Source of the DNA: Escherichia coli
GTDB taxonomy: Bacteria > Pseudomonadota > Gammaproteobacteria > Enterobacterales > Enterobacteriaceae
Strand: one strand, 5' to 3'
Assembly (NCBI RefSeq): GCF_024700885.2
Contig: NZ_CP117016.1
DNA: 64,000 nt
Part shown: positions 54,972 through 64,000 of the stretch, piece by piece
Layout of the letters: every line of letters starts with the position of its first letter
Numbering within the stretch: the first letter of the stretch is position 1
Position numbers and translations under genes: made by a program
The notes under the pieces: generated by a model
The model's database searches: none
What the model was told of the DNA's origin: nothing
What the model saw: the letters and a program-made list of their open reading frames with translations, nothing else

Positions 54972-55076
54972 ATGAGTGCAATAGAAAATTTCGATGCCCA
55001 TACGCCCATGATGCAGCAGTACCATTTTTCTATGGTTAACCTGTTGAAATTTAGCAATAAAGTGTTTGGTAAGTAG
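54972..55076 (+). pseudogene. mutS: mutS 5' fragment: first 17 codons of DNA mismatch repair protein MutS, then out-of-gene sequence and a stop
   Basis: ATGAGTGCAATAGAAAATTTCGATGCCCATACGCCCATGATGCAGCAGTA encodes MSAIENFDAHTPMMQQY (MutS N-terminus); after 55022 the sequence turns AT-rich and non-MutS (HFSMVNLLKFSNKVFGK-stop). Confidence 0.85.
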
Positions 55077-55365
55077 ACTCTGGTTTACTGATGGTATACA
55101 TAACATATAGTTATGTTAGCCAAGAACTCGAACTTAATGTGCCTAACTACAGAATGAAAAGTAACGTTGCGATACCGAAAAAATTTGGTGGCGTAAGGAA
55201 GGAATTGAAGTTCATTCATCTCCGTGAATATCTAAATCAATTTAATAACCAATTAAATAATTAGCTGGCTACAAATAACATTGATCTAATTCAATAATTT
55301 AGGATTATGTATTGGAGCTATTGAAAAAGTTGTGTTATAAAGGAAAAAAATCAAGGGAGATTAAA

Positions 55366-55635
55366 ATGTCTATCGATATCAATAAGTTAAAATCAAAATT
55401 AATTGAAGATTATAAATTCGCTGACGAGATTAGCGATGATGAAATCAATATAGTTTTAAGTGAAATACACAAAAAGGGTGCCTCAACACCAAAAGAAGTA
55501 GACGAAATTGTCTATACGGTATTAGAGGGTAAAAGGCATTATGCTTTCGAAAGTCTGGATACATCCAATACTACATCCCTTGCATTACAGTTAATTCAGG
55601 CGGCAAAGGTATATGCTCAAACACAAGGAAGATGA
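55366..55635 (+). CDS. hypothetical small acidic protein (89 aa), first gene of island cargo cluster
   Basis: SD agggaga 6 nt upstream of ATG 55366 (track ORF 55312..55635 is the same frame); no recognisable motif. Confidence 0.5.
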   Translation: MSIDINKLKSKLIEDYKFADEISDDEINIVLSEIHKKGASTPKEVDEIVYTVLEGKRHYAFESLDTSNTTSLALQLIQAAKVYAQTQGR

Positions 55636-56401
55636 AAGCATTCACATAGAGAGTAAAAAAAAACTTGATATGGAATTGCAGTTTTTAATAGATGAGATGC
55701 AAGCTGGGAAGGATAAAAACACTATTCTTCCACTGTTGAATAAACTGCAATTACAGTTTTCGATCTATGTTACTGATTTTGAAAATTTCATCGTTCGAGT
55801 TTCAGAAAATGGGTATTATCGTTCAAAAGGTGAAATAAAAGATGTTTTAATTAGCGTAGAAAATTTTTTAAATTCAAATGCAGTTGTTGCAGAAGCAATA
55901 AATACAGTTTCAAGCATATTCAATTTACCCCAATGTTATCAAGAAGGAAATTTCATAACAACTGCTCAAATAATATTAAGAACACATCAGAAAGAAAAAG
56001 CCGAGGAATTATCTCAAATTTATAAGGATAAAGGATTATCAACAAATGGCTTTGATAGTAAAGAAAAAATTTATTTGAACAGACACGGGTTTGATATGAC
56101 CAGATTTATTTCGTTTATATTAGGATTAATTTGTATACTTTATTTTTTATATGAATACAATATAGGCAATATAAACAATGGTATAAGTTGGTTTAATTAT
56201 AGATTGTTTGTTCCAACTGGATTAGGAGCAATAATATTTTCACTATTTCCGACAACCATGCAATTAAAATTTAGAGCAGGAGTGACAGCCACTGGAATTG
56301 TCGCATTTATTATATTTTTTTATACTGTCAATCCAGCAAAAGTTCCTGATTTTCAACTTCATAATATTGATAGCAATCAATCATCAGAAAAAAACAACTG
56401 A
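55613..56401 (+). CDS. hypothetical membrane-anchored protein (262 aa): about 170-aa soluble N-domain plus about 3 C-terminal TM helices
   Basis: ORF overlaps the upstream gene by 23 nt; hydrophobic segments FISFILGLICILYFLY, LGAIIFSLF, GIVAFIIFFYTV; alternative start ATG 55670. Confidence 0.6.
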   Translation: MLKHKEDESIHIESKKKLDMELQFLIDEMQAGKDKNTILPLLNKLQLQFSIYVTDFENFIVRVSENGYYRSKGEIKDVLISVENFLNSNAVVAEAINTVSSIFNLPQCYQEGNFITTAQIILRTHQKEKAEELSQIYKDKGLSTNGFDSKEKIYLNRHGFDMTRFISFILGLICILYFLYEYNIGNINNGISWFNYRLFVPTGLGAIIFSLFPTTMQLKFRAGVTATGIVAFIIFFYTVNPAKVPDFQLHNIDSNQSSEKNN

Positions 56402-56448
56402 TATCCAAGCGGATATCAGTTTAGATCTTAAAAGGAAAAAAATCCAAA

Positions 56449-56943
56449 GTGAAATTTATAGCATATGCGTTCTTGTCATTTACTATCGCACCAATAATTG
56501 GCATAATTATTGGAATTCCATTTGATAAATACTTACTCAAAAACTATCCAGTAGTTCTTTTCACAGTAATAATTATTTTCTCGTCCTTAGGAATCTACTC
56601 TCTTTACTTGTATAAAAAATCATACAAATATGTTAATGATGCTGTTTTAGCTATCTTTACTGGTTGGGTTGCATTGACATACTTACTCACGGGAGAAAAA
56701 ACAAGTGAGATAATCCCCTCGGAGAAACTAATTGAAACACACCCATTAATGTATTATCTAATAATATTAAAATTAACTATTGTTGCAAATGGGCTTTTGG
56801 CTAAGATATTTATTACATTAAACGAATTATATCATGCTCGTAAAGCTGAAAACAAAAGTGGGAAATATACTGATGTTTTAAAAATGACTATTTCCAGCAT
56901 TAAATCTTTTTTTAATTCTCAGAAGGACGGAGTCAAAAAGTAG
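56449..56943 (+). CDS. hypothetical integral membrane protein (164 aa, about 4 TM helices)
   Basis: GTG start; hydrophobic segments throughout; weak RBS. Confidence 0.5.
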   Translation: MKFIAYAFLSFTIAPIIGIIIGIPFDKYLLKNYPVVLFTVIIIFSSLGIYSLYLYKKSYKYVNDAVLAIFTGWVALTYLLTGEKTSEIIPSEKLIETHPLMYYLIILKLTIVANGLLAKIFITLNELYHARKAENKSGKYTDVLKMTISSIKSFFNSQKDGVKK

Positions 56944-57093
56944 AACAACCCCCATAGGAATTATTAATGCATTCATTGAAATAATAGCAGCAAAAACCAC
57001 TGCTAAATAATCATTCTTTGTGTCATAAAACAAAAACACAACAATATTTAAAAATAACACAAAGAGATAAAAAAGCATATCTTTAATATTCAT
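56878..57093 (-). CDS. hypothetical small hydrophobic protein (71 aa, 2 TM helices)
   Basis: Strong SD aaggagg 5 nt upstream of ATG (MNIKDMLFYLFVLFLNIVVFLF...); 3' end overlaps the convergent 56449..56943 ORF by 66 bp. Confidence 0.5.
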   Translation of the reverse strand: MNIKDMLFYLFVLFLNIVVFLFYDTKNDYLAVVFAAIISMNALIIPMGVVLLFDSVLLRIKKRFNAGNSHF

Positions 57094-57689
57094 AACAGCC
57101 TCCTTTTTTCTAATTTGATAATTTACAAATATCTTAATATAACGAAAAGTCAACTTACCCGATAAAAAATAGTTATTAGAACACCTTAAACTGATAATTA
57201 CATTAATAAATGCGAGTGATGAAATTTTTGAGTGAGATCATAAATTGTTGAGGCGTAAAGTTGTTGATATACCTGCTGTTCTGGTAAGTACTGCCATAAT
57301 AAAGGGCTGGTCTCCATCTGGTTTACTGCTTATATTTGTAGCTATGCTACTTAAGTGCTCTGTCGTTATATTGGGTATACATAATGCCCAAAAATCATTA
57401 TCGGATATTATTGAATCATCTAATAAGACGATGATTTTATTCACGAAAGATAATGCCAATGATGATGACGAAGCATTAACCAACCGTATTAATCAGATCA
57501 CAACCGAAGCTTTAACCAAACTCAGTAATAAAAAAGTTGATGCTGAAAAAACCTTGAATAAGCTCTAATGGTTGATTTTCATTGGTGTATCAGTCTGGTC
57601 TATGTTTGTTTTATATCAATTCAAAGATAACATAATCCCAGTTATTGAATTCGCCTATGAGCATATAAAGAGTTTCGTTACTTATTTAT

Positions 57690-57760
57690 TAAGCAAGGGC
57701 TAACTCATCGAAGCTCCGCTTCTTTGAGTTCCCTTGTTTTTCGCCCTTCGGTTGAAAAAG
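57690..57760. promoter_or_regulatory. candidate origin of transfer (oriT): nested inverted repeats upstream of mobC
   Basis: gcaagggctaactc ... gagttcccttg arms flanking the gaagc-tcc-gcttc hairpin, followed by cgcccttcgg; position matches oriT placement in mobC-mobA modules. Confidence 0.4.
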
Positions 57761-57784
57761 AAAGTCAAAGTCTAACCTAACTCA

Positions 57785-57812
57785 TTGACATGAATTGCAT
57801 TTCCACTATAAA
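57785..57812 (+). promoter_or_regulatory. sigma-70-like promoter for mobC-mobA
   Basis: -35 ttgaca (57785-57790), 16-nt spacer, -10 tataaa (57807-57812); strong SD aaaaaggag before mobC ATG. Confidence 0.5.
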
Positions 57813-57876
57813 TATATAATGTGTTGCAAAGGAATTGCTTACTTTAAAGCGAATAAAAATATAAAAAGGAGTTTAT

Positions 57877-58260
57877 ATGGGTAAAATAATAACATTGTCG
57901 TATACAAATAATTTTAAGCCTATTAGCGATAATAAATCTCAATCATTGCGAATACACTGTGTAAGTGTACGATTAAATAAAGAAGAGTTAGAGCTTCTCA
58001 ATGCAAGCCGTGGTGATAAACGCAAAGGTGAATGGCTTCGCATGGCATCACTTCAAAAGCTTCCTCCGACCATTCCTACAATCAATTTAGAAGTTTGGCA
58101 ATCATTGTCTGATATATCTCAAAAGCTAAACCGTCTAATAATCCACCTTGATACTAAAAGCAGTAATAGTGAACTGACGAAAACAGAGATCTTCGCTGTT
58201 AAAAAGCAGATTAAAGAGCTTCGCTCATGTCTTACAGGTTCTGATCCGTCCGTAAGGTAG
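57877..58260 (+). CDS. mobC: MobC-like relaxosome accessory protein
   Basis: 127 aa; segment VSVRLNKEELELLNASRGDKRKGEWLRMASL resembles the conserved MobC core (VRLxxEE...L...A); immediately upstream of the relaxase. Confidence 0.7.
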   Translation: MGKIITLSYTNNFKPISDNKSQSLRIHCVSVRLNKEELELLNASRGDKRKGEWLRMASLQKLPPTIPTINLEVWQSLSDISQKLNRLIIHLDTKSSNSELTKTEIFAVKKQIKELRSCLTGSDPSVR

Positions 58261-58268
58261 TTATTCGC

Positions 58269-59450
58269 ATGAAAGGAATGCAGAAGATCAAAAGGGGTAA
58301 GAGCTTCTCAGGTGTGGTTCTCTATGTGTTAAAGCCAGGCTCACACCATAGAACCGTTCCAGAAGTAATTGGTGGCAACATGACAGGTGATTGCTCACAA
58401 GAGTTAATCGACGAATTTAACCTTACGAAAGAGCTTCGCTCAGATGTGGCAAAACCTGTTTGGCACAATTCACTTCGATTACCCCAGGGAGAATCTCTTA
58501 CCAACGAACAATGGAAACGAATTGCTGACGATTACATGAAGCGAATGGGGTTCGGTGATACACACCTCCGTTGCTATGTTCTTCATGATGATCAGGCTGG
58601 TCAGCACATACACATTATTGCAAGTCGCATAGATCTCAATGGCGGGAAGCTCTACTTGGGTAGGAACGAAAACCTCATCAGCACCCGCATAATCAGTGAA
58701 CTCGAATTCGCTCATGGTCTGACAGTGACCAAGACAGCCTCTTCAATTGCACCAAAGCAACCGAAGCGGAAGAGAATCTCTCGCAACGAACAGATGCTAT
58801 CAGAACGAACTGGTGTTCCCTGCCCCAAGAAGTCCCTTCAACAGATCATAGATAAAAGTTTGGCAGATACACCTGACCTTTTAACTTTTATCAAGAGGCT
58901 GGAAGAAGCAGAAGTAGGCTGGACGGCGAATGTCGCAAGCACAGGTAAAATGAACGGGTTCTCTTTCGAATACACAGGAATAGCTTTCAAAGCTTCCCAG
59001 TTAGCCAAGAGCTATTCATGGGCAAATCTTCAAAAGCAGCTTAACTACAACCCGGATCACTTAGAAGCTCTGCGAAAGGATATACAGACCAAGGAAGTTC
59101 CTGCTCCTGTTCCTGTTCCTGTTCCTGTTCCTGTTCCTGTTCCTGTTCCTGTTCCTGCAGAACCGATAGCAAGAACGGCCGCCCAGATCGAAAGCATAAG
59201 TGAAAAAATTGCCGAACTGGAACTACGACTCAAAGAAGACAGAAGAAACGAAATCGTAGAAAAGATTCTTCAAAAGAATGCAGCCAAACAGCAAAAGCAT
59301 CTCAGGCTCACCGGCTGGATTCCCTTTTTACAACGGCTCATAGAGCTTCTCAGAAAATATGGAAGGAGCATCCTCCACAAGGTTCCTACAAACTTCTTAG
59401 AAGTCTATTCAACCCATCATCTGAAACCTACAAGAAAAATTCGTTTATAG
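58269..59450 (+). CDS. mobA: MobA/VirD2-type HUH relaxase (mobilisation nuclease)
   Basis: 393 aa; N-terminal Tyr region KSFSGVVLYVLK; three-His motif HDDQAGQHIHIIASRID; coiled-coil C-terminus. Confidence 0.85.
   Translation: MKGMQKIKRGKSFSGVVLYVLKPGSHHRTVPEVIGGNMTGDCSQELIDEFNLTKELRSDVAKPVWHNSLRLPQGESLTNEQWKRIADDYMKRMGFGDTHLRCYVLHDDQAGQHIHIIASRIDLNGGKLYLGRNENLISTRIISELEFAHGLTVTKTASSIAPKQPKRKRISRNEQMLSERTGVPCPKKSLQQIIDKSLADTPDLLTFIKRLEEAEVGWTANVASTGKMNGFSFEYTGIAFKASQLAKSYSWANLQKQLNYNPDHLEALRKDIQTKEVPAPVPVPVPVPVPVPVPVPAEPIARTAAQIESISEKIAELELRLKEDRRNEIVEKILQKNAAKQQKHLRLTGWIPFLQRLIELLRKYGRSILHKVPTNFLEVYSTHHLKPTRKIRL
59100..59159 (+). repeat. hexanucleotide tandem repeat: 8 perfect CCTGTT units (59106-59153) flanked by CCTGCT and CCTGCA
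   Basis: Encodes PAPVPVPVPVPVPVPVPVPA linker inside the relaxase. Confidence 0.95.
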
Positions 59451-59702
59451 ACAGCTAGTTATAAACACCTTTCGTAACATAACTTAATTACCTAGTGATA
59501 AATTTGTGTTTAGTCAAGAAAATATTGATCGTTATTACAGATCGATATCAATATTATGATAGCCTAAACCTATCGTAACTTAGACATCGATCGGTACAAG
59601 TGATTTTACTAAAGATAATTATTCATCGAGAATCCCTGAAAAGAGCCTGATGATTTTTAAGCAATAGCAGTATCAGGAACCGATTGTAAAAATGGAGTTA
59701 AT

Positions 59703-59981
59703 ATGAATAACGAAACCATTAAGTGTCCGTTCTGCTTCAAAGAGAGCCAGTTTGGTGTCCGTGTTTGTACCGGCTGTCATTCAACCATCAAATATGGCGA
59801 AGTTTCACCTTGGTTATCTTTACTAATAGGATTTATTTTATTAGCCATTGCTTACATCATACTTTATATAAGTCAAAGTTTTTTAGTAGCTCTCGTTATT
59901 CTTTTAACATTAATGATTTCTACAAGATTGTATATTCGTAAAAAATTTGCACACAGAGCAGTTTTCACTCACCAACATTAA
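59703..59981 (+). CDS. hypothetical zinc-ribbon membrane protein (92 aa)
   Basis: N-terminal CPFC...CTGC zinc-ribbon-like pair then two TM helices; SD tggag before ATG. Confidence 0.55.
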   Translation: MNNETIKCPFCFKESQFGVRVCTGCHSTIKYGEVSPWLSLLIGFILLAIAYIILYISQSFLVALVILLTLMISTRLYIRKKFAHRAVFTHQH

Positions 59982-59999
59982 GAACAAAAGGGATTTAAC

Positions 60000-60314
60000 A
60001 TGAAAGCATATGCTATGCTAACAATCATTCTTTCTACTTTTCTATTAACTGCATGTAATAGTGAACCAAGTCAAGATGATATCTACAATGCATTCAAAAG
60101 TGTTGTAGATAAAACCAATGCCAGCATGAAAGCTTTTGATTCAAGAGTGTCAGAAAAAGACCTTTTAAAAATCGATTATGTAAAAAAAGTAAGCTGTTCG
60201 GAAGAAGCAAACAATGTTTACAACTGCATTGTCGATGCTTCTATTAGCAACAATAAACAGACGAAACCAATTAAATTAGTTAAAGCTGATGGTGTCTGGA
60301 AAGAAGTTCAGTAG
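60000..60314 (+). CDS. hypothetical lipoprotein (104 aa)
   Basis: Signal peptide with lipobox LLTAC (MKAYAMLTIILSTFLLTACNSE); SD aaggga; terminator follows. Confidence 0.6.
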   Translation: MKAYAMLTIILSTFLLTACNSEPSQDDIYNAFKSVVDKTNASMKAFDSRVSEKDLLKIDYVKKVSCSEEANNVYNCIVDASISNNKQTKPIKLVKADGVWKEVQ

Positions 60315-60337
60315 TAGCCTATATCAAGAAGTCTCTT

Positions 60338-60362
60338 TTAGCCCCTGCACAGGGGCTTTTTA
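60338..60362 (+). terminator. rho-independent terminator after the lipoprotein gene
   Basis: agcccctg-caca-ggggct hairpin followed by ttttta. Confidence 0.7.
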
Positions 60363-60366
60363 TTGC

Positions 60367-60801
60367 CTATAACCTGACGGCTCTTACGCGAACTTCATGG
60401 GTTAACTCTTTCTCGATTACTTTCATTTCATATTGTGCTCTGACAGTAGCATAGATTTCTTCTGCCATTTCTTGATTGCTATCGATATAGTTAACGAGAG
60501 AGTTTAGCTCCCTGATAACAGCTTCCTTATTGTTTAATCGTTGTAGTAGATTGCTTGTTAGGCTTTTGTATACAGAGCTAAACATTGCCATGACATTGTC
60601 TATGTTACGATTTGATTTGGAATAAATTTTTTTAGGATAGAAATATTTTAAATGGTATCCCACAAAAATTAAGTAAAGCTGATATGAAAAACTTTTATCA
60701 TGTGGCTGATATCGTTTTGATATGTATTTATCTACAATGATAACAAGCTGTTCTTCCAGTGTCATCACTGAATTATAATTGGTTTTGTTCATAAGTTGCA
60801 T
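60367..60801 (-). CDS. hypothetical protein (144 aa), last gene of recombinase-strand cluster
   Basis: ORF with ATG; no recognisable motif. Confidence 0.5.
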   Translation of the reverse strand: MQLMNKTNYNSVMTLEEQLVIIVDKYISKRYQPHDKSFSYQLYLIFVGYHLKYFYPKKIYSKSNRNIDNVMAMFSSVYKSLTSNLLQRLNNKEAVIRELNSLVNYIDSNQEMAEEIYATVRAQYEMKVIEKELTHEVRVRAVRL

Positions 60802-60894
60802 CCTTGCAAAATTTGATTTTGTCTTCCTGACAATACATATATAATTACCACATATTTAAAAAACATCAATAGACAAAACCTATTGATGTCAAAA

Positions 60895-61278
60895 TTATTT
60901 TTTGTTTTTGGGAAAAATTTGATCTTCTCTAATACATTTACCATATGCAACCATTTGAAGATCTCTAACCATAAGTAGAAGCCTGTTATTTTCACTAACT
61001 AACCTCGAATTTTCTGTTTCTAATTTACTGATTTTATTCGAAGCATAGGCAAGACTTTGAGGACTTTTAATATGCTTAACAGTTTCACCTTTAGTTCTCT
61101 TTTTCTGCTGATATGCATAAGCTATTACTGTATGTCTTGAAAGAGCCTGTCTCGTTGGTTTTTTACCGAAATGATCCTCTACGGAATCACAAAGACTGAC
61201 CCAAGTTAAATCGCCTTCCCAGCCATTTATTTTATCGAGAACGAATTCAATATCTTCCTTGTTAAACTTTTTACTCAT
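60895..61278 (-). CDS. small coiled-coil protein downstream of the recombinases (TnpC-like position)
   Basis: Start at MSKKFNKEDIEF (track ORF starts 10 codons earlier); overlaps the upstream recombinase gene; C-terminal heptad-like region KISKLETENSRLVSENNRLLLMVRDLQ. Confidence 0.55.
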   Translation of the reverse strand: MSKKFNKEDIEFVLDKINGWEGDLTWVSLCDSVEDHFGKKPTRQALSRHTVIAYAYQQKKRTKGETVKHIKSPQSLAYASNKISKLETENSRLVSENNRLLLMVRDLQMVAYGKCIREDQIFPKNKK

Positions 61279-62917
61279 TATGTTCTCCTCTAAGATAATA
61301 ACTAACAATATGATTTATAATTTTACTAACTTCTTGGATTTCCTTTTCAACATAATTCGCTTTCTGTGAATTATATTGGCTTCTGTATAAATTATTCTTT
61401 TCTTCAAGCGTTTGTAAATGGTCTTTAATTTTGCAAATAATATCATCCTTACTCCCTCCACCTAAATCAGAAATCATTTCATCAGCAAATAATACTCTTC
61501 GTTCGTTTTGTCGCAACTCCTCCCAAGTTCGGTTATCATACACATTATTTTGTTCAACATTTTTCCTCCCTGACCAAAAAGCTATTTCTATATCAGAGAG
61601 CATAGCTCTTTGAGCAAGAGTGTTTAAAAGATGTCTTGGCTGATGACTACTAAAAATCTCTTTCATACCATTGGGTTGTAATGTTTTATGTCGTTGAAAA
61701 AAATTTAAGGTAGTTTCTTTTTCTGACCTTTTTTTAAAATCAGCAATAAACATCTTTTTATTTGCGGGTAAGACACAGAATAAATCAATTCCTTTCTTTA
61801 AATGTAATTGATCTTTATTTAGGATTAACAATCTATTACTAAGGTTTATAGATTTTGAAAATTCATCCCAAGATTTTGTTTTATCGCTATAATTAAAAAC
61901 TTCATTCCAAAATTCTTTTGCACTAAGAATCCCACTCTCTACCCTCATTAATATATTTTTAGTTTTAACATTGAAGCAGTCCATACAGTTTAGATTTAAA
62001 AGCTTATACAACTTTGTATGAAAATATCGTCCATTCTCATCAGTCTCTAAACTCTTATAAAACTCCAATTCTCCTTTTTCTCGTAGGGTAGCTATGCACC
62101 TTGCCGTTTGTGATAATACCCTTAATCTTTTAATGGCTAATTTTGCTATTGAATGCATATTCCTTGGAATCCACTTTATACTTTCACCATAGCCTTTTGC
62201 ACTATGATAACGAATGCCATAGGAGCCTTTCCCCTCTATGTCGTTCCCTTCAACTTCACAATCCACCTCAAGACTCAGGACTTCTGATATTCGTGTTGGA
62301 GCACAAAGAAGCAGTGCGATGATAGATGTTGTAAATATATCTCTTTGGCTTTTATCATTAGAACTAAAAACCCTACCAACAAGATCTATGACTTCCTCTT
62401 CTGGTAACTTATTTTTAATTTCTTTTTGCCCTATAAGATCTCTTACAGCTTTATTTCTAATTATTCTAAGCCTGGAGTTAAACTTACTTAATTTTGGATT
62501 TATTATGTTATTTATAGCTAACACTTCTAAAATATTCTTTAATGCCTTTTCAATAGCCCCCGCACGACTATTAGAATATTTCTTTTCTACTTGGAATAAA
62601 ATGTTGTTGATAACCTCAGAATTAATATTAACAATATGTGGTTCTACATTCAAAGTGAAGAATGAACTTTCCATAATTTTTATGACCGCCAAATAAAGTA
62701 ATGATTTACTGAGATTAGGGAAACACTCTCTATATATAATAACCTTTGATAATTGTTGAAAATGCGCTCCCATGTCTTTATCTTTTTTTATATGATTGTT
62801 ATTTTTAAATGAAACCCCTCTACCCCATGACAAATCATCCCAATTTATAATATTTTCTTTTTTTGCCTGTATCCTTACTTCATTAGCTAAAACATCATAA
62901 TTATTATAATGACTCAT
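61271..62917 (-). CDS. tyrosine recombinase, large (548 aa; Tn554 TnpB-like size and position)
   Basis: Catalytic region HQPRHLLNTLAQRAMLSDIEIAFWSGRKNVEQNNVYDNR (HxxR ... Y); box I candidate PTRISEVLSL; 14-nt overlap with upstream recombinase. Confidence 0.8.
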   Translation of the reverse strand: MSHYNNYDVLANEVRIQAKKENIINWDDLSWGRGVSFKNNNHIKKDKDMGAHFQQLSKVIIYRECFPNLSKSLLYLAVIKIMESSFFTLNVEPHIVNINSEVINNILFQVEKKYSNSRAGAIEKALKNILEVLAINNIINPKLSKFNSRLRIIRNKAVRDLIGQKEIKNKLPEEEVIDLVGRVFSSNDKSQRDIFTTSIIALLLCAPTRISEVLSLEVDCEVEGNDIEGKGSYGIRYHSAKGYGESIKWIPRNMHSIAKLAIKRLRVLSQTARCIATLREKGELEFYKSLETDENGRYFHTKLYKLLNLNCMDCFNVKTKNILMRVESGILSAKEFWNEVFNYSDKTKSWDEFSKSINLSNRLLILNKDQLHLKKGIDLFCVLPANKKMFIADFKKRSEKETTLNFFQRHKTLQPNGMKEIFSSHQPRHLLNTLAQRAMLSDIEIAFWSGRKNVEQNNVYDNRTWEELRQNERRVLFADEMISDLGGGSKDDIICKIKDHLQTLEEKNNLYRSQYNSQKANYVEKEIQEVSKIINHIVSYYLRGEHNE

Positions 62918-63881
62918 TATTCATGCCCTCCTTGTTGAGCAATTCGATTATTTTATTTATTTTACATTCTAACATTGTGAATAAGTCCGTTAGGATTTCA
63001 AAGTCTGCTTGCTTCGTATAATCTGCTATTAATACTCCAGTAAGCTTTTTTATGATTATCAAATCGTCAACCAATCTAAGGGTAATGTCGTCACTGTTTT
63101 TTAAAAATGAGGAAATATAAGGGCTTACTAACTCATTTATTGCCTGATCTATTCTGAATGAAAACTCTTCATTGTTTTTTGCATACGACAATACTGATTT
63201 CAAATTGCTATGATCTAAAGCTTTTGCTATCGTACCTAATCCATAACCTTTAAGTGCAAGCCTTGTGGCTAATGTAACCCTAAGTTGCCGAGAGTTAATC
63301 TTTTTATTTTTATCTTTACTTACCCTTTGGCAAATGGCCTGAACCCTACCGGTTATCCTCTTAGAACTCATATGCAAATTGAAGAAGTTATTTTCATATA
63401 ATTTATCAAGTTTGTAAGTCGAGTTAAAAAAACAAGGATCAATAAAGAGGGGTAAATTGTTTAATTCATCTTCACTTAATATATCGCCTACCTCACCCTG
63501 CACAAAAACCTTAACTACTGATTTAAGCTCTGATAGTGAATTGAACAAATTATCCCCTATACGCAATTCGGAAAAATCAGTTCTGAAACTATCTCCTTGT
63601 TTTAATCTGGGTATGTTTAAAAAATTACCATTTTCTTTGATATAAAGATCCTTCCTTTTTAATTGAGCGATCTGCATTGGTCTTCGCCCCGAATATATCA
63701 TCAGCATGACTAAAAGGTAGTCATTCATAGTCATATTTCCATCATTGTATTCCTTTGTCATGCCCCCAATTAGGTTCTTCAGTTCGTATTCAGATAATGG
63801 TCTTAAAGACTCTTTTCGCTCAATATATGCAGTTGTCTTGTTGGGTTTAGTTACTTTCCATTTTAAAATCAAATCCAGCAT
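62904..63881 (-). CDS. tyrosine recombinase, small (325 aa; Tn554 TnpA-like size and position)
   Basis: Box I YSGRRPMQIAQLKRKDL; box II/Tyr region LRVTLATRLALKGYGLGTIAKALDHSNLKSVLSYAKN. Confidence 0.8.
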   Translation of the reverse strand: MLDLILKWKVTKPNKTTAYIERKESLRPLSEYELKNLIGGMTKEYNDGNMTMNDYLLVMLMIYSGRRPMQIAQLKRKDLYIKENGNFLNIPRLKQGDSFRTDFSELRIGDNLFNSLSELKSVVKVFVQGEVGDILSEDELNNLPLFIDPCFFNSTYKLDKLYENNFFNLHMSSKRITGRVQAICQRVSKDKNKKINSRQLRVTLATRLALKGYGLGTIAKALDHSNLKSVLSYAKNNEEFSFRIDQAINELVSPYISSFLKNSDDITLRLVDDLIIIKKLTGVLIADYTKQADFEILTDLFTMLECKINKIIELLNKEGMNNESL

Positions 63882-64000
63882 TTCTTGATCTATGAATTCA
63901 TTATTTAACTCATAATGTTTTATTATAAAATACTTTAAACTTTCAACATGTGTATAGCTTATTTTATAATATGCATTGTAAAATCTATTTAGTAATCCAT

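Follow-up and report, generated by a model that had tools for sequence, protein, structure and literature searches.

What is the AT-rich DNA that interrupts the mutS locus of this Escherichia coli chromosome, how did it enter, and what has become of the mismatch repair gene at which it sits? The DNA in question occupies positions 55023-64000 of a 64,000-nucleotide stretch of contig NZ_CP117016.1 (assembly GCF_024700885.2); this whole stretch is called here the window. A first interpretation made from the letters alone (the sequence-only reading) regarded the segment as a foreign element placed between ygbA and mutS and donated by a low-GC organism. The explanation favored here, with a probability of about 80%, is that the segment makes up the left 9 kb of one 17.8-kb integrative and mobilizable element (IME) that targets mutS, carries anti-phage cargo, and has embedded in it an operon like those of the three-integrase genomic islands (GInts).

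Boundaries of the insert and the rebuilt mutS gene

The shift in base composition at the left edge of the island is real and far beyond chance. The GC content falls from 0.5315 in positions 1-55022 of the window to 0.3327 in positions 55023-64000 (from 53.2 to 33.3%), and a two-segment maximum-likelihood analysis places the change point at 55,024, next to the 55023 at which the step had been predicted. In 1-kb tiles, the host DNA has a mean GC of 0.531 (standard deviation 0.033, minimum 0.453), and the tiles of the island range from 0.29 to 0.44. The island is itself a mosaic, with 43% GC in the mobilization genes (up to 0.42-0.46 in the relaxase region, 58.0-59.5 kb) and about 30% in the remainder. 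The gene content that had been named for it, i.e., a relaxase, two recombinase-like open reading frames on the minus strand, and small membrane proteins, is present as described. In K-12, mutS directly follows ygbA and there is no island, and the exact window segment is found in 2 of 5,426 complete E. coli genomes. This rarity places the segment outside the E. coli core genome and, together with its absence from K-12, supports horizontal acquisition. Up to 55022 the host flank has about half GC, as stated earlier; the collinearity with K-12 that had also been claimed for it is not strict, since a TOBE-domain gene (molybdopterin-binding-like, 53835-54302) lies between fhlA and ygbA, where the K-12 interval measures only 36 bp. 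The related E. coli loci differ in this gene, which some have and others lack.

The element runs past the end of the window, as had been anticipated, and the rest of it was read from the genome of E. coli MLI114 (locus L001; window coordinate = L001 coordinate + 34,299). MLI114 matches the final 29.7 kb of the window without a difference (29,701 of 29,701 positions, window 34300-64000) and is therefore usable for reading the remainder of the insert. Extension in this genome led to the right junction, to a full-length mutS, and to the direct repeats that had been suggested for both junctions. The insert measures 17.8 kb (L001 20723-38535), so that the 9 kb in the window are its left half, and a 24-nt imperfect direct repeat (83% identity) flanks it on both sides. 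The left copy, attL, is located at 54998-55021 on the plus strand and contains a 14-bp core, ATGATGCAGCAGTA, at 55008-55021. The attR copy of this core lies 17,837 bp to the right of attL, outside the window, and has one mismatch in L001. When up to two mismatches were allowed, no third copy of the core was found in 49.7 kb; only the two junction copies appeared. Seven E. coli loci with differing cargo share this core at both attL and attR, and it corresponds to codons 12-16 of mutS plus the first two bases of codon 17.

The placement beside mutS given by the sequence-only reading holds, but the junction is inside the mutS coding sequence, after codon 17, and not in the spacer that separates it from ygbA. 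An orphaned 5′ fragment of mutS (54973-55077, plus strand) stays on the native promoter side: it starts with the ATG at 54973, contains 17 native codons, MSAIENFDAHTPMMQQY, which are the same as in K-12, diverges at 55022/55023, and reaches a stop after 34 amino acids. At the opposite junction, a start and 13 codons encoded by the island (MKESASKDLSDHTP) run into MMQQYL... and generate an intact mutS of 855 amino acids. A label such as "ygbA-mutS intergenic island" would miss the chimeric 5′ end of mutS, the 17-codon stub, and the island-dependent expression that mutS would have.

The N-termini that the element supplies to MutS differ among the seven occupied E. coli loci (e.g., MKESASKDLSDHTP or MNESIDKDLSDHTP). 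The mutS start is present in all seven, and in the four whose sequence spans the entire gene (L001, L002, L004, and L005), mutS is annotated at full length (2,568 nt, 855 amino acids) with no pseudogene flag. In a wider survey of the target, in which one genome per species was taken and 25 loci were returned, the MutS query aligned over residues 1 to 854 or 855 in 20 of the 25. According to the mechanism proposed here, a P4-like tyrosine integrase (IntB) would recombine the core in mutS with its identical counterpart on the circular form of the element. The right arm of the element would bring the mutS-like start and the 13 replacement codons, and integration would leave the 17-codon stub at the left and the complete 855-codon mutS at the right. 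The rebuilt gene would then be read from element DNA and not from its native promoter.

Two further details concern this region. An in-frame ATG five codons 5′ of the annotated start of the rebuilt gene (L001 38489-38503) would give MSKINMKES..., which resembles the native MSAIEN...; therefore, the element arm looks like a captured and diverged mutS 5′ region and not like random sequence. Just after the core (L001 38560-38568 and the equivalent positions of L002-L007), six of the seven loci have TCTCAAGCTG, encoding Lys19, and K-12 has TCTCAGGCTG, encoding Arg19. This difference may be a host polymorphism or may come from an exchange that reached beyond the 14-bp core.

Since the native promoter and the first 17 codons now stand 17.8 kb from the gene, the island could act mainly to switch off or to retune mutS, as a reversible mutator switch. 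SpyCIM1, which is located at mutL in Streptococcus pyogenes, is a parallel of this kind. For the four integrase clades that target mutS in Beta- and Gammaproteobacteria, gene inactivation was in fact suggested (Mageeney et al., 2020; PMC7192596). In the same sense, a consensus scan detected no sigma-70 promoter in the 147-bp spacer between intB and mutS, the replacement upstream region, which is crowded with putative integrase arm sites. Nonetheless, all the occupied loci examined keep an uninterrupted full-length mutS with an in-frame start supplied by the element, and the HTPMMQQY segment is preserved in the replacement N-terminus, which argues for selection keeping MutS functional. A rebuilt 5′ end in front of an intact gene argues against simple inactivation, and a switch as the main role of the island is considered quite unlikely. 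A broader proposal, which is regarded as doubtful, is that the island DNA, by replacing the promoter and the first codons of mutS, would place mismatch repair under the control of the element. If this were true, repair capacity, and with it the barrier against recombining foreign DNA, would vary with the element's state, and an integrated origin of transfer (oriT) 15 kb from mutS could drive a transfer of the mutS region like that of high-frequency-of-recombination (Hfr) strains. The mosaic phylogeny of mutS alleles in E. coli has long been noted, and such a transfer might contribute to it.

The integrase, the end motifs, and the gin operon

The gene intB is found at the far right end of the element, outside the window, and is divergent from mutS across the 147-bp spacer. 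It encodes a protein of 487 amino acids with a PF00589 domain and a weak N-terminal match to Arm-DNA-bind_3; PF13356 is recorded in the precomputed Pfam hits of some close homologues. In 23 of the 25 species loci, intB is situated about 150-220 bp from a divergent mutS; the remaining two are truncated at contig ends. The genera with this linkage include Dickeya, Citrobacter, Salmonella, Yokenella, Yersinia, Rahnella, and Erwinia, as well as Pantoea, Serratia, Pectobacterium, Klebsiella, Brenneria, Tatumella, and Samsonia, and the same arrangement is seen in a locus of Methylotenera (Betaproteobacteria) with 55% identity. Within complete E. coli genomes the family is present in 133 of 5,426 (2.5%). 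From these linkages, the intB family appears to be a dedicated mutS-targeting lineage: intB adjoins mutS, the crossover falls at codons 12-17, ahead of the MutS Pfam domains, and the association is kept across genera, which fits the description of such clades in PMC7192596. Its conserved partner on the element, p214, has a very weak match to HTH_17; a role as excisionase would be a guess on this match.

The named homologues of IntB that are 83-98% identical belong to the Enterobacterales (Edwardsiella, Serratia, Klebsiella, Salmonella, Yersinia, Pectobacterium, and others). Because of this affiliation, and because the same site is used in at least 15 genera, the low-GC donor postulated in the sequence-only reading is contradicted, and the low GC is better viewed as a property of a shared mobile gene pool than as evidence of a Firmicute-like donor. 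The precise junctions with their duplicated core and the presence of a relaxase point in the same direction, and they speak equally against a degraded prophage or phage satellite. Either origin, remnant phage or Firmicute-like DNA joined by illegitimate recombination, would account for the very low GC (33%), for the weak PHROG matches of a few small open reading frames, and for a near-identical homologue of the island protein p262 in Proteus mirabilis that is labelled "Phage protein". With backbone homologues overwhelmingly in the Enterobacterales at 83-98% identity, and with the same site occupied in at least 15 proteobacterial genera, both are judged highly improbable. The annotation lists no capsid, tail, terminase, or satellite marker genes, and a prophage or satellite was discarded on this ground.

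Besides intB, the island carries a four-gene operon of recombinase-like genes, of which the two recombinases that had been noticed in the window form part. The operon encodes proteins of 430, 456, 548, and 127 amino acids on one strand, with overlapping gene ends, and is laid out like ginABCD; PF00589 is found in the first two (ginA and ginB), and the name GInt-like is given here on the basis of this layout and of PF00589. The window contains the last three genes, all on the minus strand: a ginB-like tyrosine recombinase (62904-64000, cut by the window end), a ginC-like divergent recombinase-fold protein of 548 amino acids (61271-62917), and a ginD-like small protein of 127 amino acids (60895-61278), which closes the operon. 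The ginB-like protein matches PF00589 and also NF041502 (2e-65, below the cutoff of that model), and its full gene, as read in L001, encodes 456 amino acids and ends at window-equivalent 64274. The ginC-like protein has no Pfam match and no PDB sequence match; its homologues keep the tyrosine-recombinase-like motifs P-(T/S/W)-R-I-(S/T)-E, H-Q-x-R-H-L-(L/I)-N-T, and V-Y-(D/N) in sequences read by eye. The gin layout is conserved in eight other species loci. The ginC- and ginB-like proteins are probably not what placed the island at mutS; it is the integrase adjacent to mutS that matches the end motifs.

A second set of recombinases raises the possibility that the 17.8 kb are two tandem elements, each with its own recombinases: a GInt at the left, consisting of ginABCD with p141, a lipoprotein, the mobilization genes, and a gene cassette as cargo, which would extend leftward as far as the mutS stub and correspond essentially to the part in the window, and a small intB-Gabija island at the right. 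The minus-strand layout does fit the published GInt order (PMC5385486), similar islands at this chromosomal place have been typed "IME__GInt" (PMC10121019), and divergent gin operons (25-36% identity) occupy the same relative position in the eight species loci. The ends of the insert argue for a single unit. The left end has a putative arm-type motif pair, GGTTTAC-N4-GGTATACA (55079-55102), which includes the 9-mer TGTATACCA at 55092-55100 on the minus strand. Exactly four copies of this 9-mer exist in the 49.7 kb, one of them 70-80 bp inside the left end and the other three between intB and mutS. Loci with the other integrase subtype (L004 and L006; E24377A and strain 4/4) carry GCTACA/GGCTAC at both ends instead. 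Even so, L006 (strain 4/4), with its switched end motifs, has gin proteins about 98% identical to their L001 counterparts; therefore, the left end goes with intB and not with gin.

The interior of the insert gives a concordant picture. The mutS core does not recur internally, a search of five loci showed no consistent 10-12-nt repeat between attL and the ginA-proximal region, and no second copy was found of the 26-bp palindrome ATATATTCACCTTAAGGTGAATATAT that lies 5′ of ginA. The gin junction region was not found away from this locus in E. coli genomes: there were 16 matches, each at a single chromosomal place with the same neighbors, and all the examples that were opened were at the mutS locus. 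In addition, gin-less islands (E. coli YP3, Salmonella diarizonae, Citrobacter, and Yersinia) keep MobC, the relaxase, and p141 together with p214 and intB. A single element is favored because there is no internal att copy or GInt repeat, because the end motifs covary with the integrase, and because the gin-less islands keep the backbone. Two tandem elements are therefore held to be unlikely, and the gin operon would be, from these comparisons, an internal module of an element bounded by intB. With a P4-like integrase, a relaxase module, and a full GInt-like operon together in one unit, this island is a convenient case for examining the role of embedded gin operons.

Mobilization genes and variable cargo

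Of the features expected of an IME, att repeats, an adjacent PF00589 integrase at a fixed target, and a relaxase without type IV secretion genes are found here. The relaxase (58269-59450, plus strand, 393 amino acids) is of the MobA/VirD2 type, with a PF03432 match at 1e-26 and weak MobP/MobB matches, and is 43-56% identical to relaxases of plasmids of 3.5-20 kb. Immediately 5′ of it is a MobC-like relaxosome accessory protein of 127 amino acids (57877-58260, plus strand). Its homologues in related islands are 51-98% identical, its Pfam match (NikA-like) is very weak, and MobC is the annotation given under the relaxase match in related plasmids. The C-terminal (PV)n linker of the relaxase is encoded by a hexanucleotide tandem repeat, (GTTCCT)n, at 59097-59162, and the length of the protein varies from 393 to 397 amino acids among otherwise near-identical islands, which suggests repeat slippage.

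An 83-nt double hairpin (57689-57771, plus strand) is located about 110-190 bp 5′ of mobC. Its DNA fold has -15.9 kcal/mol (z = -3.7), and plus-strand matches are present in 11 loci, including Yersinia, Salmonella diarizonae, and Pectobacterium, with compensatory changes in helix 2. Relatives carry cargo genes inserted on either side of it. From its conservation and its position beside the relaxosome genes, the best guess is that this hairpin is the oriT of the element. None of the 18 annotated genes of the 17.8-kb insert is a type IV secretion, coupling, or mating-pore gene. Transfer would thus start with the MobC-like protein and the relaxase acting at oriT, probably the double hairpin, and would use the conjugation machinery of a co-resident plasmid or integrative and conjugative element (ICE); reliance on a helper is proposed because the element lacks mating-pore genes.

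Other small genes surround this module. Between the hairpin and the cargo cassette of the left end is p107, a hypothetical gene with a weak phrog_6316 match (57245-57568, plus strand). Downstream of the relaxase are p92 (59703-59981, plus strand), a likely membrane protein with a CxxC...CxxC motif and hydrophobic segments that is conserved 3′ of the relaxase in related islands, and a putative lipoprotein of 104 amino acids (60000-60314, plus strand) that was read from the sequence; related islands annotate a "SEN1984 family lipoprotein" in this region. The backbone protein p141 (60367-60792, minus strand) has a 42% identical counterpart in the gin-less island of strain YP3 and is also present in the gin-less islands of Salmonella, Citrobacter, and Yersinia.

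Pairwise comparisons of the islands show that the conserved modules (end motifs, hairpin, mobilization genes, p141, gin, p214, and intB) are separated by variable stretches. Beyond the window, from left to right, are ginA, tRNA genes, p191, GajB, GajA, p214, and intB. The genes gajA and gajB are adjacent and constitute a Gabija system (PADLOC matches of 1.8e-240 for GajA and 2.6e-198 for GajB, with consistent Pfam domains). In sister islands the slots hold retron Ec48 with Qat, HerA/DUF4297, a TIR protein, a DUF4209 protein, or a nuclease-related-domain protein with an ABC-three-component system and DRT3. According to these comparisons, the slots between backbone modules would be the places that take up cargo, in this case Gabija and a three-gene membrane cassette. 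A side observation concerns the tRNA genes, where an Rfam scan of the whole island gave only two tRNAs and one truncated tRNA. They form a block of about 245 bp (L001 31355-31611, window-equivalent 65654-65910) with tRNA-Asp(GTC), tRNA-Val(TAC), and a third tRNA without acceptor ends (Rfam 34 bits, model positions 8-63). Only 4 of the 16 E. coli genomes with gin have the block, which lies directly beside the perfect 26-bp palindrome 5′ of ginA; copies without the block retain only the ...ATCCCCC tail.

The three-gene cassette fills the left slot of the island, immediately inside the mutS stub. The first gene, p89 (55366-55635, plus strand), encodes a small acidic protein with no family matches, which is 40% and 28% identical to the partner small proteins beside p262 homologues elsewhere. 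It is overlapped by p262 (55613-56401, plus strand), whose product has an N-terminal helical domain and C-terminal membrane helices. The third gene, p164 (56449-56943, plus strand), probably encodes a membrane protein, with about four hydrophobic segments read from the sequence. The family of p262 is small, with 31 representative clusters among 1.84 billion proteins, and the protein matches phrog_5814 (2.5e-10), a family without known function. An AlphaFold2 model of p262 (predicted local distance difference test score of 79.6) has a helical N-terminal domain and further helices that match the hydrophobic C-terminal segments. This model gave no significant fold match against the PDB, and its matches in the AlphaFold database are all uncharacterised, the best being the P. 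mirabilis "Phage protein" mentioned above, with 94% identity. PADLOC, NCBIfam, and the recorded Pfam hits gave no match of the cassette, or of p107 next to it, to defense or other models.

A pair of p89-like and p262-like genes, at 39-40% identity, lies downstream of smpB, the usual position of the tmRNA gene, and adjoins a reverse transcriptase, an STM3845-family protein, and an OLD-TOPRIM ATPase; the reverse transcriptase and OLD-TOPRIM set looks retron-like, as read from its Pfam domains. The three-gene cassette, in the form of a p89-like small protein, p262, and a protein of 164 amino acids, also stands 5′ of a MobC/relaxase pair in another mobilizable island (L045/L046; metagenome contig L045, 9748-20026). 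This island has a large serine recombinase instead of intB and adjoins an HxsD/radical-SAM cluster. In Pectobacterium aroidearum (L038, 9754-13250, and L039), a decayed remnant upstream of mutS has p89, p262, a shortened third gene, and the double hairpin, with no integrase, which suggests that the cassette was kept after the mobility genes were lost. A defense role is plausible because the cassette fills the slot of known defense systems in sister islands and because of these associations elsewhere. Tentatively, and at less than even odds, p89-p262-p164 could be a membrane-acting anti-phage (abortive-infection) system of a new type. In many Enterobacterales, this family of islands provides clearly bounded cargo slots at one fixed chromosomal place, and the cassette is a reasonable defense candidate; the interest of the locus lies mainly in this cassette and in the expression of the rebuilt mutS.

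Several observations weigh against the view of a single, still functional IME moved by IntB, in addition to the lack of a consensus promoter in front of the rebuilt mutS. The element may still excise, but the predicted attP junction (CACACTCCTATGATGCAGCAGTACCATTTT) had no exact match in metagenome contigs, and no excised circle was seen. The element has four recombinase-like genes, any of which may be active, with IntB as the presumed catalyst. A run of T residues after the double hairpin could fit a terminator or insulator instead of an oriT. The canonical GInt layout puts the cargo after ginD, so that the whole part of the island in the window could be GInt cargo. Finally, in Tn6872, another IME beside mutS, attB was placed 102 bp 5′ of the gene, versus the boundary at codons 12-17 in E. 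coli; either the authors of that work scored arm-type repeats as att, or the crossover points differ among hosts.

Relation to known mutS-associated islands and GInts

The interval between fhlA and mutS is the site of SPI-1 (Salmonella pathogenicity island 1) and a recognised hotspot. In E. coli, the mutS/ygbA interval is defense hotspot #8, occupied in 27 of 1,322 genomes (2.0%), and its islands were typed as IME or IME+GInt ("IME__GInt"), the GInt typing being done by BLAST at E<1e-5 (Hochhauser et al., 2023; PMC10121019). The island described here resembles them in its flanking genes, in its occupancy (2.0% there versus 2.5% here), and in the combination of a relaxase with a three-integrase cassette. 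The sizes are also comparable, mostly 10-26 kb in hotspot #8 (with one of 5.9 kb) and 10.4-21.4 kb in the seven E. coli loci. It is important to note that hotspot #8 was defined by flanking core genes only and that the main text of PMC10121019 makes no mention of mutS. The listed cargo of the hotspot includes Qat, retrons, AbiP2, type I restriction-modification systems, and Her (PMC10121019), to which the retron Ec48, Qat, HerA/DUF4297, DRT3, and TIR cargo of the relatives studied here is comparable; unlike it, the left cassette of the present island matches no known defense system.

Outside E. coli, the closest counterparts are the IMEs Tn6872, Tn6873, and Tn6874, located beside mutS in Providencia/Morganellaceae, which have int, oriT, att sites, and three variable regions (PMC9058013, 2022). 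The likeness to the Tn6872 type extends from int, oriT (a candidate one in the present island), and attL/attR to the variable regions, with a uvrD-type gene in one and restriction-modification systems in others. The end repeat of Tn6872 (LR134189) has a 24-bp att consensus, AACCTAcAaTTtAACCTACACTTA (PMC9058013), with two tandem ...CTACA units about 100 bp 5′ of mutS. The GGCTACA-N5-GCTACA and GGTTTAC-N4-GGTATACA pairs of the present islands resemble this repeat, a likeness that is architectural only.

GInts have been reported in 7.5% of Escherichia replicons (PMC5385486; Idola et al., 2023, PMC10214605). They have ginABCD at one end, cargo right after ginD, and an AT-rich far end, and may insert in the 5′ end of a gene (PMC5385486). 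The operon described above shares with them its four-gene order, i.e., two PF00589 recombinases, a larger divergent recombinase-like protein, and a small protein. It differs in several respects. Published GInts are bounded by 10-17-nt imperfect direct repeats, whereas the present gin operon is internal to an IME bounded by its integrase; published GinC proteins lack part or all of R...HxxR...Y, whereas the ginC-like protein appears to retain the motif; and published GInts are described as non-mobilizable, whereas this island has a relaxase.

The basic classification of the island, a mutS-targeting IME with anti-phage cargo and a GInt-like operon, is therefore already in the literature. No statement was found in those papers of the 14-bp core inside the E. 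coli mutS, of the rebuilt 5′ end that keeps the gene intact, of end motifs that covary, or of a gin operon lying within an element instead of at its end.

For the rebuilt gene, parallels are the SXT/R391 ICEs, which use the 5′ end of prfC, and the islands with dusA-specific integrases, in which the element supplies a replacement 5′ coding end and a promoter so that the target gene stays intact. SXT is self-conjugative and uses another target gene; the element at mutS has only a relaxase module and is known from sequence alone. The two would nonetheless share the same solution: a tyrosine integrase acts at the 5′ end of a conserved housekeeping gene, and a replacement 5′ end is supplied.

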